A DNA stretch of 64,000 bases from an uncultured Chloroflexia bacterium (GCA_963777965.1 CAVZSS010000009.1:29379-93378); one strand, 5' to 3'. Shown: positions 52,492 to 64,000, counted from the first letter of the stretch. The notes: generated by a model from the sequence alone, not told the origin. Made by a program: numbers and translations.

Positions 52492-54268
52492 TTATTTAAC
52501 TACTGGGATGGTCTCGAGCTGCTCGACCAGTCCTTGGATGACATTAAAACCACCCTGCCAAAAGCTTGCGTTATGTATATTTATCCCTGCATCAGAAAGT
52601 ATTTTTTCAGGGGGTTTTGACCCGCCTGCTGAAAGCAAATCCAGGTAGCGCGGCTTAAATGCGTTCCCTTCCACCTTATATTGCTGGTATAGGGATAAAA
52701 CCAGTAATTGACCAAAGGTATATGCATACACATAGAATGGTGTCTGGTAAATGTGGGGGATAGACACCCACTCCCAGCGGAATTCATCGCTGACTTCGAT
52801 GGCATCTCCAAACTGTTTATTCAGGTTCTCCAGGTAGGCGTTTGATAATTCATCAATCGTTGCGCTATTCTGAACCATATCATGGGCATGTCGTTCAAAC
52901 AAAGCAAATTGCGACTGGCGCATAACCGTAGCATAGGCGTCATCAACCTGGCGGAAGAGCAATGTTTGACGCACAGAAGCATCACTTTTTGTAGCCAGCA
53001 AGTGATCAATCAGGACCATCTCGCCAAAGGTGGAAGCTGTTTCGGCCAACGGGAGTGATGAATGGAAAGTGAACAGGCTGTGATCTGCAGCCAGCTGGGA
53101 GTGAATCGCATGACCAAGCTCATGAGCCAAGGTCGCCACATCATCGGGTTTGCCTTGATAGTTGACTAGAACCCAGGGAGTGATATCAGGGGCTACCGTC
53201 GCGCAAAATGCACCGCTCATCTTCCCTTTACGCACCTCGCTATCAAGGTGGCGTTGTTCAAGTACTTTATGGGCAAGATTGGATATTCTTGGCTCAAACC
53301 GCTGAAATGCATCAAAAACCATATCAGCGGCTTCATTAAAACTGTACATTTTCTCTGTTTTTACCACCGGCGCATAAATATCATAGCGGCGCAAGCGTTC
53401 CATTCCCAACCAGCGCGCTTTAAGTTGGAAAAATCGTTGAAAAACCGAAGTATTATCCTGGCATACACCCAATAAAGTGTCCACCACATCATTAGGGATA
53501 TCATTTGCCAGGTTACGCACAGCCATCGGACTGGTAAAGTGTCTCATATCCAGGTTTTCGTTATGCCAATCTCGCACCAGGGTCTGGTACATCTGGCCTA
53601 AGATTATGCCATCCTGACCATAAACACGGTATAGCTCCTGGTATGCCTTGGCGCGCATCATTGGGATCATAACTGCGTACGAAAACCATTAATTCTCCGC
53701 GGGTAAGCTCCTTTATCTCCCCGTCTACTTCCAGGTGGAAGATGTAACGATTGGTTAGTGTGTTGTACAGGTTGATGATCGCCCTCACACCAGTGACATC
53801 CTTGATATTAATCACCTTCTCTTCGGATTCCGTCAAGGTGTGCGGCTTGAAATGGCGCATCTCTTCCAGCCAATAGCGGTAATCGCCGGAGTAAGCCATC
53901 AACCGCTCGGCATCCTCCTCCTCCAGACTTTTCCACCACAGGCTAAAAAATAAAACGCGATTGGATATCAGCGCCATGCGGCTATCAACATCAGATTGAA
54001 AAGATTGTACAGCCTGGTCCTGAGTATCAGCGGCAAAACTTAACCCTGCAAAGTCGGCAATCCTGTTAGCCAGGCGCGAGATGGCTTCAAGCAAGCGAAT
54101 AGTATATAAAAATGCGTCCGGTGGCATTGCTGGGGAAAGGCTTGGGCGCAGGGCTTCGAGTTCAACCACCTTAACATCCACCTCGTCAAAGGCTGCTTTC
54201 ATTTCAGGGCTGTCATACGCTGGAAATAGATCGGATAGGCTCCAGGGAGATTGGGTAAATGTCATCAT
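52492..54268 (-). pseudogene. pepF: M3B oligoendopeptidase F-like, one frame break
   Basis: HELGH zinc motif in ORF 52492-53670. The N-terminal 235 aa are in ORF 53561-54268. The junction …MVFVRSYDPN / MRAKAYQELY lies near 53660. Confidence 0.8.
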
Positions 54269-55523: not shown

Positions 55524-55605
55524 GCCGAAGTGGCGGAATAGGCAGACGCGCACGACTCAAAATCGTGTTCCGTAAGGAATGAGGGTTCAATTCCCTCCTT
55601 CGGCA
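55524..55605 (+). tRNA. tRNA-Leu (anticodon CAA), copy 1, CCA not encoded
   Basis: Class II cloverleaf: acceptor GCCGAAG/CTTCGGC, anticodon stem CACGA/TCGTG, loop CTCAAAA, variable arm TTCC-GTAA-GGAA, T arm GAGGG-TTCAATT-CCCTC. TATAAT at 55503-55508. Confidence 0.9.
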
Positions 55606-55756
55606 CTAATTTTAGACAAAACCAGTCAGAATTTCTTGGATCTTGAGGAATTCTTGGCTGATTTGCGTTTTGAGTAGAGGGGATAATTAGATGAGCTTGC
55701 AATCATCTTTAATAAGAATTCCTCGGACGCTTGATGTATTCCCACTCATCGACATT

Positions 55757-56947
55757 CTATGGAGTCACAGCTTTACTCTGCTGTGAAGAGCAAGATTCCT
55801 TTTTAAGTTGGTGAATTAACTCTTGTATTGTTTGCAAAGGCATTACTGAGATTTTCTTATCAACCTGGTAAGCATCCACCCCGGGATAAACCACCCACAA
55901 ATAAGACAAGTCCAGATCGTGCATGGCAGTTTGCATCGAACGGGTAATCTCAGGCGCTTCACTGAACTTCACTTCGATCCCGTAACGTTTCCCTTTGTGG
56001 AAGAATAGCAAATCCAACTCCGCACCATTATGGGTTCCCCAAAAATAGGCTTCTAAGGGACGGATGATTTGCAGCACTTGCTCGATCACGTATCCTTCCC
56101 AGGAAGCGCCAACTTTGGGGTGACCCAATAGGGTATGTATATCCTGAATATTGAGTAAGCCGTGTAAGAGACCGCTGTCGCGCAAATAGATCTTCGGCGC
56201 CCGCACTTGGCGTTTGCCCATATTTTCATACCATGGCTGGAGTTGACGCACCATAAAAGCCCCGGTAAGAATATCCAGGTAACCGCGTACCGTTTTATCC
56301 GACAGCCCCATCGCACGGCCGAGCTCGGATGCATTCCAGGTTTGGGCGTGATAATGGGCCAACATCGTCCAGAAACGCCGCATTGAAGTGGCAGGAATTT
56401 GAATGCCAAGCTGTGGAATGTCCCGCTCCAGGAAGGTGCGGATAAATCCTTCCCGCCATGTCAAGGAGTCTGCTTCATCATCTGCAAGGAAAGAACGCGG
56501 GAAGCCACCTCGAATCCAGAGCAATTCCCAATTAGAGCTCCCGACTTCGGCTAGATTAAATCCATTTAGATCTACAAACTCGATCCGCCCGGCAAGCGTT
56601 TCTGAAGCATTCCGGATGATGTCAGGCGAGGCACTACCCAGGATGATGAAACGTGCTTTTTGTCCCGGGCGATCCGCCAGCACTCTCAGGGTTCCAAATA
56701 ACTCCGGCATCAACTGGATTTCATCCAGAATGACCAAGCCTTCCAGGGTTCTCAACACAAGTTCGGGGTTCTGGAGTCGGCGCTGATCCGGAATAGATTC
56801 CAGGTCAAAGAAAGTCGCTGGTTTGAGCTCAGCGAACATTCGCGCAAGGGTGGTTTTCCCTGTTTGTCGCGGTCCCAGCAACGCCGTTATGGGAGAGCGG
56901 CGAACTGCCGTTTTCAATAATTCGAGATAATCCGGGCGTTTAATCAT
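55757..56947 (-). CDS. AAA+ ATPase (AAA_14 / DUF4143 family)
   Basis: Walker A GPRQTGKTT and Walker B LVILDEIQ. The C-terminal half is DUF4143-like. Confidence 0.8.
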   Translation of the reverse strand: MIKRPDYLELLKTAVRRSPITALLGPRQTGKTTLARMFAELKPATFFDLESIPDQRRLQNPELVLRTLEGLVILDEIQLMPELFGTLRVLADRPGQKARFIILGSASPDIIRNASETLAGRIEFVDLNGFNLAEVGSSNWELLWIRGGFPRSFLADDEADSLTWREGFIRTFLERDIPQLGIQIPATSMRRFWTMLAHYHAQTWNASELGRAMGLSDKTVRGYLDILTGAFMVRQLQPWYENMGKRQVRAPKIYLRDSGLLHGLLNIQDIHTLLGHPKVGASWEGYVIEQVLQIIRPLEAYFWGTHNGAELDLLFFHKGKRYGIEVKFSEAPEITRSMQTAMHDLDLSYLWVVYPGVDAYQVDKKISVMPLQTIQELIHQLKKESCSSQQSKAVTP

Positions 56948-57002
56948 CCGCTAATTATAGCATGAAATCTCGGAGTCGTACTCCGAGATTTCCGATCGAT
57001 AT

Positions 57003-57326
57003 TCACTCTTGGCAAGGCCAAGTGAACATGAGAGTGGAAGCCATAATAGGTCTGTCGAGCAACATCATCGTGATCATTGGCTGCCTGACGAAAAAAGTTG
57101 TCCGATTAATCTTGCCTAAGCCTGGAAACCAATCTATATAGTTTCTGCAAAAGTATGAAAAATCTTCCAGACTAACCCGCTTAGGCTGAATACCGCTGCC
57201 CACACACATGGGGCAAGGGGCATAGCGTATGTATGTCTCGCCTTTGGAGCTCTTAGCCTCTCCCATAGGTACATAGGCTTCGCCATTACAGTGCGAACAA
57301 GTGGCTAGGATATGGACTTTGAGCAT
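57003..57326 (-). CDS. small protein with a DnaJ-type CxxCxGxG zinc finger
   Basis: CSHCNGEA … CPMCVGSG in the first 45 aa. AAAGGAGG RBS upstream. The C-terminal half is low quality and may be out of frame. Confidence 0.45.
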   Translation of the reverse strand: MLKVHILATCSHCNGEAYVPMGEAKSSKGETYIRYAPCPMCVGSGIQPKRVSLEDFSYFCRNYIDWFPGLGKINRTTFFVRQPMITMMLLDRPIMASTLMFTWPCQE

Positions 57327-57339
57327 GGTTACCTCCTTT

Positions 57340-57560
57340 CTTAGTAAGAATCAAAGAAGCCCGCCCCAAACTCAAGAAAATGAGTTCGAGACGGGCTTGG
57401 ATAAGCCGTGCGATATGACACGGAATACAGGTTGCACGGCTGCCCGCACCCCGCTCCCCCCTATCCAGGCGGTGCCCTATGGGGTCATCGACACTTGGGG
57501 AAATTATTCAATTGTTGATACCCCCTATGCTCACTTATCGACTTCTTGACCCCTTATCAT
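57340..57560 (-). promoter_or_regulatory. structured 5-prime leader with a terminator-like hairpin (candidate cis-regulatory RNA)
   Basis: On the minus strand there are nested helices GGGGUCA/UGACCCC, GCACCGC/GCGGGGUGC and GCCGUGC/GCACGGC. A 16-bp hairpin (57359-57396) is then followed by CUUCUUUGAUUCUU, the RBS and the ATG. Confidence 0.35.
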
Positions 57561-57999
57561 AGGTAGCTCTAAAATGAGCAGAATATGTAGATTGAAATCC
57601 TTTTCTCCTGAATGGTCTAGTAAACATGGAATATTGATGTTCCCGATGAATGTTCACATTTAGTAAGTGTAACCACTTACGTGTCTAGGTGATTATTGCC
57701 CAGAGGCGATTTCGAGGTGAAAATAGTGGAGTGTGTTGCGTTGTTAGGGATTCTTCAGTATACTAGATGTAAGTACAGTTGCAGCGCTTCTCGAAATGTG
57801 AAATGCGAGTAGCAATAACGCGGCTAGAACACTGTATATCCAGCTTATATTGCGATGATAAACAGGGAATTTGCAGGATATCAAGAGTCCGTAAAATCAC
57901 TAGTTAGCCGCCTGTTGCAGGAGTAAGGAGTAATCGCAAAAAATATAAACTTCCATTGTCACATGCGTTCTGATTCGTATTAGCCAAGGGAGAAAACTA

Positions 58000-58785
58000 A
58001 TGGATATACAGCAACCCGTTCCCAAAATTTCACTCGATGAGTTGCGACAGGAAATCAAGAAAGAGTACACCAATGTTGCACTCGACCCCAATAAGGGATA
58101 CCACTTTCACACTGGACGCCGTCTTGCAAAATTGCTCGGATACGATGAAGCCTTGTTCGCCGACCTTCCCGAAAGCAATATTGCCTCCTTCGCTGGAACT
58201 GGAAATCCGTTTTCTGTCGGAACAATCAATTCTGGCGAGACCGTCGTAGATGTTGGTTCTGGCGCAGGTTTCGATTCTCTTATCGCATCGCGTCTGGTTG
58301 GCGCATCTGGTCGAGTTATAGGCTTCGACATGACAGCGGAAATGTTGAAGAAAGCGCAAGCGGGAGCGATGGCGATGGGAGCATCGAATGTTGAATTCCG
58401 CGAAGGGCTTGCAGAGTCATTGCCTCTACCCGATAAGTTTGCCGATGTAGTGATTAGCAATGGCGTCCTCAATCTTACTCTCGACAAAACCGAGACGCTT
58501 CGTGAATGGTTTCGTATTCTCAAACCAGGCGGACGATTGCAGGTGGGCGATATTTTAGTTGAACGCGAATTACCATCAGATGCAGTAGATGATATTTCGC
58601 TCTGGACTGGCTGAATTGCTGGCGCTCTGCTGGACGCAGAGTTACTCCGCGCCGTGAGCGCGGCTGGTTTTGTAGATGAAAAAATCGTTCACAAGTACAA
58701 CAATTATGAAGATGTACCCGAGCCGTCTGACGCGCTGGATTTCGGAACGCAAGGTATCAGTTTCCGCGCTCAAAAGCCTTTATAA
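58000..58785 (+). CDS. SAM-dependent methyltransferase (ArsM-like, type 11) interrupted by an in-frame TGA at 58612-58614
   Basis: VVDVGSGAGFDS SAM motif. It is colinear with ArsM-type proteins up to DISLWTG-TGA-IAGALL, then stays in the same frame to TAA 58783-58785. Confidence 0.7.
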
Positions 58786-59238
58786 GATAAACAAAGGCTT
58801 CTCAATCCAAAGACGGCTAACAAAGCGTGCACTGGACGGGTGGGGATTCTGCGCCTTTTCAAGCATTTTCCTCGCTTTGAGTTTTTTCTGCTCTTGAACA
58901 TTATCCACGCCCCAGCGCAGGTAACGCAAGCCGTTGGGCTGTTCCGACAATATAAATGAGGTACGGGGGAAATATTTACGTCACAGAACCTCACAACGTG
59001 AGAAATCTGGATATGTGATTCCTGGAACGCACGTTCTATTCTGATACAATGAACTCATGAAATCCCTCGCCAAGGCCTCTCGCACGTGCAAGAAGGGCAT
59101 TGACTTGATATGATTTGATGTCAACGCACATTGATTGAAGATTTATATCTGATTTTACTAAAAGTTTACGGGTAGGATGTAGTGCCTTCACACACCAACA
59201 TCCATAACAGTAATTTCATACAAATAATATAGCTAAAC

Positions 59239-59616
59239 ATGACTCGATATTTTAAATGTTCAAAATGTGACATGATTTATGATCTACAGGAAACAAGTTC
59301 TGAACCTATCTCATGTCCTTTGTGTGGTTCTTTACAAGACCTATCTGTTTCTGTTGAAGAAACAATCCATGTCCATGAGTGGCTGCAAAAGAAAGATAGG
59401 ATAGCTGGCTATAAAGAACCAATAGGCGAACAAGTCGTTGGTGATGAGTTATCCTATTCATCTGGAAGATGGGTTTACAAACAGAGGATTATCGACCGAA
59501 CAAATAACTTGTATTATGAAGTCGTGATCGATAAAGAGACAGGAAATATTATTCATCATTGCAATGAACCATTAGATCAACATCATGGTCATGGTTCTGA
59601 TAAGAAATACAAATAA
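59239..59616 (+). CDS. hypothetical protein with an N-terminal zinc ribbon
   Basis: CSKC…CPLC within the first 30 aa. AT-rich, no recognisable family. Confidence 0.45.
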   Translation: MTRYFKCSKCDMIYDLQETSSEPISCPLCGSLQDLSVSVEETIHVHEWLQKKDRIAGYKEPIGEQVVGDELSYSSGRWVYKQRIIDRTNNLYYEVVIDKETGNIIHHCNEPLDQHHGHGSDKKYK

Positions 59617-59670
59617 GGCTTCTTCAATAAATAGATGCTTGTATTATCCAAGCCCTAATAGAATGGTTTG

Positions 59671-60574
59671 TTACAGTCTGTTATTATCTACAGGGCTCCC
59701 TATCCTGTGCGCCTGAGCAATGTCCTCTGTAGTTTGAGCTTTGTAAGCTGAAAACATCCACTCCAGCACGAAGCATGTTGAGAGCAAATGATCGTCGAAA
59801 GGAATGGAGAGTTGGTGCTTTTATTCCAGCCTGTTTCGCCCGACGTTCAAGTATCCCCCTCAAACCTCGATATTCCAATCGTTCTCCTTCTTCAGTTATC
59901 CACAGGGCAGGATGGTCATCTAGGCGATGCTTCAGATAAGTGCGCATGGATTTTCTACTCGCCTTTCCTATAAAGACGGTTCGGGATTTACCTCCCTTTC
60001 CATGATGGATGAAGATTTCTCCACTAACGGGATTGGTGTCTTGAATGTTTACTCCCAATACTTCTCGCGCTCTTGCTCCCGTATCTAGGAGAAACATTAT
60101 CAATGCTTTATCCCGATAATCCAGAAACGAATTTGCTTCGCAGGTTTTCACGAGTGCTGATACATCTTCAGGTTCAACGGGCGATAGCGGTTCGTTCGAC
60201 ACTTTGGGTGCTTTCACCTTGCAAATAGGGTTCTTCCAGCCGTCGGGTTCTGCTTCGCTTTCATACCACATTAGGAATACTCGTAATGTACTAAATGTGG
60301 CGTGTAATCCGCCAGGGTTATGCCCTGTTTCCTGATGCCATAATAGAAATTGACGGATAACATTGGATGTAATATCCTCAATACTGGATATAAGCTGCGA
60401 TTCGCAATACTTCATGAAATGCCCTAGTTGCTGTTTATAGAAGGTAAGCGTAAACCCTGATACCCCTTCTATTTTCTTCGATTGATAGAATTGATTCGCC
60501 CATTCAAGCAGGTTGTAACGGACAAGATTTTCTATAATCGTGTGCGTTGAGTTGTCTTGATTGTTTGTATACAT
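59671..60574 (-). pseudogene. tyrosine recombinase/integrase with a disrupted 3-prime catalytic region
   Basis: R (LDTGARAREV), K (GKGGKSRTV) and HxxR (LHSFRRSFA) are present. After …GVDVFS the conserved tail AYKAQTTEDIAQAHRIGSPVDNNRL appears only in another frame (stop at 59671-59673), and the LLGH box is missing. Confidence 0.75.
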
Positions 60575-60660
60575 GGTTTAGCCTCCTGACTAATGGTCTA
60601 GATATGGGGGCCTAACCATCTTTTCCCGATTTCATGTACTATATATGGGGGTAGCTTCCA

Positions 60661-60745
60661 GCCGAAGTGGCGGAATAGGCAGACGCGCACGACTCAAAAT
60701 CGTGTTCCGTAAGGAATGAGGGTTCAATTCCCTCCTTCGGCACCA
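60661..60745 (+). tRNA. tRNA-Leu (anticodon CAA), copy 2, followed by CCA
   Basis: Identical to copy 1 over 83 nt. Here the discriminator base is followed by CCA. Confidence 0.9.
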
Positions 60746-61317: not shown

Positions 61318-62593
61318 TCACTCGATAAGATTGAAAGCAGGCGTAGATTCTTTTTGCCCTCCTTTCCATAACCAGAAAAACCAATAAAGGAAAACCGAGA
61401 TGGTATAAAGAATAATTGTACCCAGGAATGGAGGTCCAAATCCATAACGCACTTGAAGAATCCCGCTGATCGTCGGGCTGATCGCCCATCCAAAGTTCCA
61501 TGACATACTCACCAGGCTGGCAACCATTGCCCTGGAGGAAGCATCCACTTGCTCCATGACAAAAGTCTGGTACACGGGAGAGCTCATGTTCATCAGCGCA
61601 ACTCGAATGTAATATGCGAATGCGCTGACCCAGAACAGCGGGGCAAATCCTAACAAAATCAGGAATGGAATAGATAACGCTTGAGTGAACACTACAACCT
61701 GTATCTTTCCAAAGCGATCCGCCAACGGTGGGGCTGCCAATAAACCCAGCCCCATAGCCAGGGAACCCCAGGCAAATAAAACGCCGATCACCTGGTCTGA
61801 TTGGTTGTATTGTACGCGGAAAAATACATTCATGAAGGGCATGATCAACCCCGCCCCAATCGAAGTGATTAGCATGGGCAGAATGAGCTTGGTCAATTTC
61901 TTCGGGTGTTTTGTTGCAAAAGAAATAGGCGCAAAGACGGTTCTCTCTGCTTGTTCAACACGTGGTATGCGGATAAGAAGCAGAGGAATAATTCCCACAG
62001 CCAATGCAACCGCCACGACCAGGAGCGAACCAGCATAAGCCTGGCTGCTGATCGAACTCGACCTCAAGCCTGCCTGCCACCCAGGTCGGCAGGTAACCAC
62101 CAATCCAACTGCCCACAGAGGCAGATACCATTTGTAAACCAGCTGTCAAGCTGAATAAATAGGTGCGTTCATGCGTACCGCTGTTTTCCATCAAAAACGG
62201 GCTCATCGTAACAGCGGCCAGGCTCTGTGCAATACCGGACAGGATATTCGTGCCATACAGAACAGGTGTGACCGGAAAGATCACCATCATGCCAACAGAG
62301 ACGCTGATCAGCGCCGCTGAAATGAGCAGGGAAGCTTTTCGTCCCAGCAGATCCGCCAGGTAACCCATGGGTAAAGCAAAAATCAAGGCTGTAATGCTGC
62401 TGACGGTCACCAGGTTACCCAACAACTTCTCATCGTAACCCAGGCTGAGGATATAAAAATTAAACAATAAGCGGAAGATTCCCATGGCGATGCCGGTAAT
62501 CATTGCATATATTAAATACAGGCGTGCATTCGGGCGGAATGCCGCCAGGTGATCTCCGTAGTCTTTTATGGTGCGCTTGATACCAGCAATCAT
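61318..62593 (-). pseudogene. MFS transporter, one frame break
   Basis: ORFs 61955-62593 and 61318-62103 are colinear (…GGYLPTWVAGRL / RSSSISSQAYAGSLLVV…). The break lies near 62070. Confidence 0.75.
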
Positions 62594-62653
62594 GTTTTTC
62601 TATCGACTATTATTAATAAGAACATACTCCCTGTCAATGACAAAGATTACTAA

Positions 62654-63080
62654 TGTGGATATAGAAAAATAACCACTATCCATCATTATTTACTTTATTT
62701 TCCTGTCTCTCAATAAATTGTGGATAACTGCCTAAATTCTGTGGATAAGTCAGCTTAATTGTGGATAACTCCCCAAGAATTGTGCGTGTTGGTTGGATAA
62801 TGGGTCTCCTTTTGTGTATAAAAAGCCTGTGTTATTCCTAAAATCCATACCAAGCACGGCTTTGCTCAGGAGAGTTCTTTTTATCCACATTTTTATTTAT
62901 CCTCTGTGTGGATAATATTTACATCCTCTTTACCCATATAGACATGATGTTGAGCATTCACCACCATCTATAAGTAAACTTCTATTCTAAATACCTCCTA
63001 TCCACATTTCCACATACTCTACTACGACTACTATTATTAAATATATATTGATCATATGTTATTTATATAAACAACTATAC
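62654..63080. other. DnaA-box cluster plus AT-rich tract: candidate replication origin (oriC) or DnaA-binding locus
   Basis: Perfect TGTGGATAA at 62719, 62740, 62760 and 62907. Perfect TTATCCACA at 62881. 8/9 matches at 62654 and 62998, and a 7/9 match at 62792. Almost pure A/T at 63031-63080. Confidence 0.6.
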
Positions 63081-63137
63081 ATCTCCCTAAATTAGACCTT
63101 CAAGAGATGTAAGATATGGCACGCTTATTTAATTCAG

Positions 63138-64000
63138 CTATTGTTCATTGAATACAAGGGTTAGGAAGAACTGCTCTATTCTTTGCAAAAACGGGAAGTC
63201 AAGTGTGGTGAGCATATCTGCGAAAACTTCCACTTCATCGATTGTAGCAGGCAGGTACCCATATGAGGAGGTAGTGACGGTATAGGTATCTGCCAGTAGT
63301 GTGCGGGTATAGTATCCGCTGTCATCCGTGGTAGCTTGGTAAGTATGACCCTGCCCATTAACTGCCAGCACAGTTGCTCCCACGAGAGGTGTTCCCCAGG
63401 TGTATGCAGTTACGTGACCATCCGAAGCGCCTAATCCACTGGGATTCAGGCAGTCGCTCATGTGGGCATAGGTACCAATAGAAGCTTTGACGAAATCAGT
63501 GAAGTATGAAGGATTGGTATTGGCAGGCTTGTCATTAGGAGTGTGGTAATAAGGGTTAAAATCATCAATCCCTTCTATAGCGAGGATGGCTGGATAGCCA
63601 TGATCTAAAAATGAGGTATGGTCGCTTGAGCCAGCATAACTTGTTCCGATTACGGGCTGAAGATTGAGGTTGTAAGAGTCAACAACACCTGAAAATAGAT
63701 TAGCCAGATCTAGCGAAGGAGGCATGGATGGAAGGTATCCAAGAAAAATACTTGCAGGGCTGTTTGGTGTGTTCCAGGCAATCATATCCAGGTTCAAATA
63801 ACCCAGGATGTTATCTCCATTTTTATAGGCTCTCTGGGCATAAGCATGGCTTCCGTTAATCCCAGTTCCTCGCCGGTCCAAAAAGCAAATCGCAGCGTGA
63901 AGCCCCAGTCGTGTTGTGAGAGGATATCCACGGCCAGCAAGGTGGCTACCAATCCGCTGGCATTGTCGTCTGCACCTGGAGCGCCTTGGACATCATCGAT
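63138..64000 (-). pseudogene. M28 family aminopeptidase with a C-terminal carboxypeptidase-regulatory-like domain; frame break; 5-prime end off the window
   Basis: Hand translation of 63882-64000 gives IDDVQGAPGADDNASGLVATLL…FAFWTGEELGL, which continues as NGSHAYAQRAY… in ORF 63138-63881. One A appears to be missing in an A-run near 63856. Confidence 0.75.

Follow-up and report, generated by a model that had tools for sequence, protein, structure and literature searches.

The intergenic region and its DnaA-box cluster

Close to the right end of the window (the whole 64-kb stretch of DNA that was analysed) lies a non-coding spacer of 544 bp (62594-63137). Both bordering genes are on the minus strand: on the left an MFS transporter gene begins (ATG at 62593), on the right an M28 peptidase gene ends (stop at 63138). 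With a GC content of 32.5%, the window as a whole having ~45-60%, the spacer is indeed the AT-rich intergenic region described by the first-pass annotation, and it gave no match to Rfam families. It harbors the following DnaA boxes, which belong to a larger predicted origin of replication:

62654-63080, no strand assigned: predicted oriC overall (box arrays, unwinding module and DNA unwinding element)
62654-62662, minus strand: outlying DnaA box, 8/9 (ATATCCACA on the minus strand), just upstream of the MFS promoter-like site
62719-62727, 62740-62748 and 62760-62768 (array 62719-62768), minus strand: three perfect DnaA boxes TGTGGATAA in one orientation
62792-62800, minus strand: weak DnaA box, 7/9 (GTTGGATAA on the plus strand), read directly from the sequence
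62813-62821, minus strand: DnaA box, 8/9 (TGTGTATAA on the plus strand, TTATACACA on the minus strand), missed by the first-pass annotation
62881-62889, plus strand: perfect DnaA box TTATCCACA, facing the unwinding side
62907-62915, minus strand: perfect DnaA box TGTGGATAA, in the same orientation as the left array

All box coordinates that had been proposed for this region, in the spacer and up to the A/T tract, were re-found (five perfect boxes, two 8/9 and one 7/9). The three boxes of the phased array are spaced 21 and 20 bp from start to start, i.e., about two helical turns. The cluster is far beyond chance: the window contains seven perfect boxes (TTATCCACA/TGTGGATAA) versus 0.52 expected from 100 dinucleotide-preserving shuffles (sd 0.66, largest value 3), and five of the seven fall inside 197 bp. 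When up to one mismatch is allowed, 34 boxes are found versus 14.9 expected, a number that no shuffle reached.

Outside the phased array, a promoter-like site for the MFS gene is found on the minus strand at 62637-62609 (TTGACA, 17 nt, AATAAT; 11/12 matches). At the other end of the cluster, the tract 63031-63080, previously described as almost pure A/T, has 86% A+T by count on the sequence. A repeat scan of this tract gave no repeated units beyond one short palindrome (63058-63075). The GATC that had been pointed out in it is present in a single copy, at 63050, but is not enriched, as the window's own density predicts 2.8 per 544 bp; the idea that it could hint at a Dam/SeqA system, as at an E. 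coli-type origin, was therefore rejected.

A predicted basal unwinding system beside the boxes

The strongest feature of the locus, a second box, a 4-nt spacer and seven DnaA-trios that directly follow the box at 62998, had been overlooked by the first-pass annotation. Together with the adjacent A/T-rich DNA, it consists of:

62998-63014, plus strand: tandem box pair, CTATCCACA (8/9, 62998-63006) and ATTTCCACA (7/9, 63006-63014), with a one-base overlap
63015-63018, no strand assigned: 4-nt spacer TACT between box pair and trios; G+C-rich in relatives (consensus gNCC)
63019-63039, minus strand: seven DnaA-trios, on the top strand CTA CTA CGA CTA CTA TTA TTA
63032-63080, no strand assigned: AT-rich DNA unwinding element, holding the least stable 40-mer of the window

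On the top strand the order is thus CTATCCACA TTTCCACA TACT CTA CTA CGA CTA CTA TTA TTA aatatatattgatcatatgttatttatataaa. The least stable 40-mer of the 64 kb (63032-63071, dG -35.3 kcal/mol) overlaps the last trios; the mean over the window is -55.5 kcal/mol (sd 4.3), and the next-lowest value -41.2 kcal/mol.

The basal unwinding system (BUS) has been defined as a DnaA box with at most two mismatches and an optional second box with at most four, in the 5'-TTATCCACA-3' orientation and upstream of the trios, a box-to-trio spacer of 0-16 nt (mostly 10-13), and a run of three or more trios with A in the center (NAN on the 3'->5' strand, consensus 3'-GAT-5') (PMC8287927). In the window, CTATCCACA carries one mismatch and ATTTCCACA two, the spacer up to the first trio measures 12 nt when counted from the better box and 4 nt when counted from the second, and trios 4-7 are four consecutive NAN trios located 13 nt from the second box. 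The bottom strand reads 3'-GAT GAT GCT GAT GAT AAT AAT-5', such that six of the seven trios fit [G/A]A[T/A]; the GCT at trio 3, which has no central A, breaks the rule, and the strict published pattern counts only the four consecutive trios. The rows of the published supplement are written 3'->5' (for Bacillus cereus: AATAGGTGT / ATAGGTGT / TCGG / GATAATGAT...; PMC8287927), and as they match, box orientation and strand of the window module are canonical.

Searching both strands for a box with at most two mismatches, a 0-16-nt spacer and at least six of seven trios matching [G/A]A[T/A], we found this pattern only at 62998/63006 in the 64 kb. Shuffling the whole window 60 times never produced it, and 2000 shuffles of the AT-rich spacer produced it in three cases. 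By its sequence, the box pair with its 4-nt spacer, the trios and the AT-rich element has the arrangement of a BUS.

Conservation of the layout across Chloroflexota

We scanned the GTDB species representatives for three perfect boxes at the exact 21/20-bp spacing and found at least 120 such loci, each in a different assembly as judged by accession prefixes; by a count of record titles, 113 of them carry a Chloroflexota label. Among the matches listed, the labelled groups include Anaerolineae, Chloroflexia, Dehalococcoidia, Thermomicrobiales, Caldilineae, and Ardenticatenia, and each assembly has one array, L007 excepted. The complete genomes NZ_AP018437.1 (Pelolinea submarina), AP024710.1 (Leptolinea sp. 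HRD-7), and OY729417.1 have a homologous array at about 326,645-326,694, 1,036,303-1,036,352, and 1,223,591-1,223,640, respectively. The exception, L007, is an Anaerolineaceae MAG with phased arrays of perfect boxes at 488-537 and 2544-2593, i.e., 2 kb apart, which flank a deoxynucleoside kinase gene and of which only the first is followed by a trio module; possibly, the two arrays form a bipartite origin.

The relatives examined in detail share one layout, in which the phased boxes are followed by an opposite-facing box at +160 to +190 (160-190 bp past the first phased box in several of them), the tandem pair TTATCCACATATCCACA, a 4-nt G+C-rich spacer, CTACTA..., and A/T-rich DNA. A strict test (box pair, 4 nt, and CTA[CT]T[AG]) was passed by 50 loci among the matches listed, with the module 186-341 bp downstream of the first phased box. 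Their consensus is TTaTCCACaTATCCACAg.CC CTACTA.tActAC, and the next 50 nt have 69% A+T versus 48% for the loci overall. The in-register CGA trio recurs in 24 of these 50 strict relatives (among the matches listed), and the window has the highest trio score of the loci listed. When eight origins were aligned, conservation was confined to two islands, the box array and the unwinding module. One relative, L063 (CAVSBZ010000001.1, a 780-kb contig), is syntenic with the window (OsmC-like, MFS, element, M28 peptidase); its unwinding module is 90% identical over 52 bp, the genes being ~70-74% identical at the DNA level.

The genes around the element differ between lineages. In ~40 loci among the matches listed, the neighbors are an unnamed protein of ~340 aa and a deoxynucleoside kinase, these usual neighbors of Anaerolineae origins not being found in the window; other loci have GalT, CorC/CNNM, Obg, ParA or a bifunctional nuclease, and the window and L063 share yet another gene context, unlike that of other lineages. 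Thus the module persisted through rearrangements of its neighborhood, an argument against its serving as the promoter of one particular gene.

This bears on the proposal that the boxes are purely regulatory and belong to a DnaA-controlled promoter of the divergent MFS transporter gene, which we regard as highly improbable. DnaA-regulated promoters had been listed as an alternative by the first-pass annotation, and the MFS gene does have a good promoter-like site, with the 8/9 box at 62654-62662 just upstream of it. However, array and module are conserved throughout the phylum beside unrelated genes (those of the ~340-aa protein, deoxynucleoside kinase, GalT, SRP RNA, and dnaA), relatives that have no MFS gene keep the array, which is the opposite of what such a promoter would predict, and in the syntenic L063 an ORF for an ArsR-type regulator (L063 3638-4711) separates the MFS gene from the array. 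Trios and an unwinding element would have no role in a regulatory site of this kind, which would not be expected at a switch of GC skew either (see below).

The same distribution can be held against an origin of an integrated plasmid or of another mobile element using the host DnaA, a reading to which we give very little credence. A putative island does lie next to the locus: an exact 83-nt direct repeat, corresponding to a complete tRNA-Leu(CAA) gene, occurs at 55524-55606 and 60661-60743 and encloses 5.1 kb that encode a DUF4143 ATPase, a SAM methyltransferase, a 125-aa ORF, and a tyrosine recombinase. The region 55524-60743 thus looks like an island integrated at tRNA-Leu that ends 1.9 kb left of the predicted origin. 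Yet the latter lies outside of the repeats of the island, comes with no rep gene and with no iterons besides the DnaA boxes, has an MFS transporter and an M28 peptidase as neighbors, and is syntenic with L063 among ordinary chromosomal genes. It is moreover found once per assembly in at least 120 assemblies, mostly beside chromosomal genes (dnaA, SRP RNA, obg, deoxynucleoside kinase), and the skew switch described below is a property of a whole replicon.

Three further observations concern the surroundings of the element in relatives. The gene for the ~340-aa protein, which has no Pfam or NCBIfam match, directly adjoins the origin and usually reads toward the array (L077 5601-6614, L118 3266-4288, L082 6063-7142). 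In the two Chloroflexia-type loci that were scanned with Rfam, an SRP RNA gene lies directly after the unwinding element (L010 5968-6068, from Candidatus Chloroploca asiatica, and L088 2004-2100, from Ca. Ribeiella danica). By eye, a promoter-like sequence (CTTGAAT/CTTGATT, ~17 nt, TACAAT) that reads away from the unwinding element can be recognized ~60-110 bp past the trios in L077, L079, L082, and L105; the window is without a clear counterpart.

Linkage to dnaA, GC skew and gene orientation

That the window has no dnaA gene, as reported by the first-pass annotation, was borne out by a tblastn search with seven Chloroflexota DnaA proteins, and neither dnaA nor dnaN was found among the 20 window ORFs scanned. 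Nine loci among the matches listed (L034, L062, L064, L089, L097, L103, L120, L122, and L123), four of them from Anaerolineae or Anaerolineales MAGs, have dnaA directly left of the array, and the module is therefore the classical dnaA-linked cluster in those lineages. For eight of these loci the strand of the array is given, and dnaA points toward the array in each. In B. subtilis, dnaA likewise reads toward the boxes and the unwinding side.

When the loci are oriented by the element, GC skew is negative on its left (mean -0.039, 85% negative, n=97) and positive on its right (mean +0.038, 76% positive, n=97). The difference between the two sides gave p = 4.9e-10 in a paired Wilcoxon test (n=76), a value that overstates the support as the loci are related, although the trend itself is consistent. 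This change of sign in the relatives is that expected at an origin, and the nearest genes do not explain it because their predominant orientation is toward the element. Of the window itself, the left side alone is visible: the 62.7-kb left flank has a skew of -0.023, and the cumulative skew falls toward the element; the skew in the window is weak, and over the first 10 kb it is not monotonic. Only 920 bp of the window remain to the right of the element, too little to reveal a skew switch or a divergence of gene orientation in this genome. Exact-protein look-ups with the MFS fragment, the integrase, and the OsmC-like ORF gave no match from which the sequence could be extended to the right, and neither did a scan of metagenomes for the exact 25-mer that covers the box pair and the trios. 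The first-pass annotation had also observed that most genes in the ~35 kb to the left are on the minus strand, co-oriented with a fork leaving leftwards. The majority is real (from 27 to 62.6 kb, minus-strand ORFs add up to ~27.0 kb and plus-strand ORFs to ~4.8 kb, so that the minus strand has ~85% of the ORF length over the nearest 35 kb) but limited to that stretch, since between 6 and 23 kb the genes are mostly on the plus strand, and it carries no weight.

Separation from dnaA raises the question of a locus that titrates or recycles DnaA, comparable to datA or DARS, or of a silent origin, relic or secondary, that binds DnaA while replication starts next to dnaA elsewhere in the genome. Besides the missing linkage to dnaA, this reading can draw on published Chloroflexi predictions (DoriC 6.5), which put several origins at low genome coordinates, and on the fact that the right flank of the element in this genome lies beyond the window. 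We nevertheless consider it unlikely. The module has no second copy in the window and borders on the least stable DNA there, the sign of the GC skew changes exactly at the element in relatives, the same layout is the dnaA-adjacent cluster in nine relatives among the matches listed, and the Chloroflexi origins of the database score only 4-10 for an unwinding module, versus 15-27 for canonical ones. We know of no titration or reactivation locus that carries a module of tandem boxes, trios and unwinding element. The datA-like alternative mentioned by the first-pass annotation is hence disfavored, as trios and an unwinding element would be needless there and as homologues of the element lie at a skew switch.

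Comparison with known origins and DnaA-binding loci

The BUS of the B. subtilis oriC (incC) consists of DnaA-boxes 6 and 7, DnaA-trios, and an AT-rich region (PMC8287927, PMC6669920). The window module resembles it in having a tandem pair of boxes in the same orientation, of which the upstream one is nearer to the consensus, a distance of ~12 nt between the better box and the first trio (8 nt of the second box plus 4 nt), and trios of the 3'-GAT-5' type on the strand complementary to 5'-TTATCCACA-3', followed by A/T-rich DNA; the orientation of dnaA in the dnaA-linked relatives, toward the boxes and the unwinding side, is a further likeness. In contrast to B. subtilis, the window element is not flanked by dnaA or dnaN, its third trio is GCT (top strand CGA), its 4-nt spacer TACT is not G+C-rich, a separate array of three perfect boxes with 21/20-bp spacing is located 279 bp upstream, and a CCCATATAT(GGG) motif is conserved between array and module.

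In E. coli oriC, DnaA boxes in both orientations lie next to an AT-rich unwinding element, and the window has the same combination. The E. coli origin is also separated from dnaA, as is the origin candidate of the window, but its unwinding-module score is relatively weak (PMC8287927), whereas the module of the window is strong. Further differences from E. coli are that GATC is not enriched in the window spacer (1 versus 2.8 expected), that the A/T tract is without repeated units save for one short palindrome, and that the flanking genes are others.

The datA and DARS loci of E. coli, an enterobacterial feature, are clusters of DnaA boxes that titrate or reactivate DnaA. With these the window shares a cluster of high-affinity boxes away from dnaA, and it differs from them in its trios and unwinding element and in the skew switch found at its homologues; to our knowledge, datA and DARS have neither trios nor an unwinding element and do not lie at a skew switch.

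For Chloroflexi, the literature that we searched contained no specific description of an origin in this phylum or in Anaerolineae, and no experimental evidence for any Chloroflexota origin. Unwinding-module scores are available for the DoriC 6.5 entries, with 7 for Anaerolinea thermophila, 4 for Chloroflexus aggregans, 4 for Roseiflexus, 5 for Herpetosiphon, 4 for Thermomicrobium, and 10 for Caldilinea, as compared to 15-27 for canonical origins (PMC8287927 supplementary file 3). These database origins are from the same phylum as the window and share its DnaA-box consensus, but the layout of the window is much closer to the canonical one.

A probable chromosomal origin unlinked from dnaA and its proposed mechanism

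In all likelihood, the element is a chromosomal oriC of Chloroflexota that is unlinked from dnaA. The first-pass annotation had presented the locus as a candidate oriC, and this reading is now supported by the unwinding module, the conserved layout, and the linkage to dnaA and the skew switch in relatives. Very probably the site at which the bacterium begins to replicate its chromosome, the element belongs to an ordinary kind, an oriC whose unwinding module is canonical; its exact layout recurs across Chloroflexota, usually away from dnaA. The assignment of the window to this phylum is based on the layout of the origin and on the synteny with L063.

DnaA binding, the site of unwinding, and firing are predictions that we draw purely by analogy with the B. 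subtilis BUS. DnaA would occupy the high-affinity boxes, and the left array (62654-62915), including the three perfect boxes two helical turns apart, would scaffold its oligomerization. The right-facing boxes at 62881 and 62998/63006 would aim DnaA-ATP at the unwinding side, where a DnaA filament would grow from the tandem pair onto the trios of the bottom strand (63019-63039). By stretching this strand, the filament would open the adjacent, very unstable A/T tract (63032-63080), at which the replicative helicase would be loaded and from which two forks would leave, the leftward one running co-directionally with most genes of the nearest 35 kb.

A conserved palindrome and a possible wider origin design

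Between array and module, the window contains one more element that recurs in related origins:

62933-62941, no strand assigned: CCCATATAG, a copy of the conserved CCCATATAT(GGG) motif found 30-70 bp ahead of the pair in related origins

Among 51 origins (the 50 strict loci and the window), ATATGGG/CCCATAT is present in 32 and CCATATA in 28, and both are absent from control segments of the same loci. These 7-mers have two preferred positions relative to the pair, roughly -30 to -70 and -160 to -210. The full form of the motif, CCCATATATGGG, is a palindrome, and CCCATATAT(GGG) is seen, e.g., in L077, L054, and L117. We know of no origin-binding protein for this site; under the tentative extension below, the ~340-aa protein encoded next to many of the origins would be one candidate for a factor that binds the palindrome.

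A tentative extension, which we put forward as a possibility rather than as the expected outcome, would be a four-part origin design specific to Chloroflexota and located off dnaA in most lineages. It would join the triple array with 21/20-bp spacing, one or two CCCATATAT(GGG) palindromes, placed ~30-70 and 160-210 bp ahead of the pair and bound by a lineage-specific factor, the tandem-box/trio module, and the recurrent CGA (3'-GCT-5') trio. If the module had indeed moved off dnaA in most lineages, the weakly scoring Chloroflexi origins of the database would be misplaced, and their low DoriC scores would fit such a mislocation. A phylum-wide design that is usually unlinked from dnaA, the recurrent CGA trio, and the conserved palindrome are possibly new.

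For this uncultured Chloroflexota genome, a probable start of replication can thus be fixed, which is of use for the definition of replichores, for growth rates from read depth, and for the orientation of assemblies. The phased triple array combined with TTATCCACATATCCACA-N4-CTACTA makes a simple signature that could locate likely origins in Chloroflexota genomes and MAGs, including those unlinked from dnaA. The general picture of bacterial initiation is unchanged by these results; they extend the BUS to a phylum whose database origins had scored poorly for it, and add two oddities that can be tested, a trio without central adenine and a conserved palindrome.

Further observations in the window

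The methyltransferase segment of the tRNA-Leu island (57750-59180, gene at 58000-58614) recurs with 95-99% DNA identity on short contigs (L001-L006) from several JGI and ENA metagenomes, some of which adjoin tyrosine recombinases while the contexts are otherwise different, and this suggests that the segment is a mobile cassette. Several genes in the right part of the window are broken into overlapping ORFs in different frames, namely those of the MFS transporter (61318-62103 and 61955-62593) and of the M28 peptidase (63138-63952), and apparently also that of an M3 peptidase (52492-54268). The splits reflect either indel errors from long-read assembly or pseudogenes.
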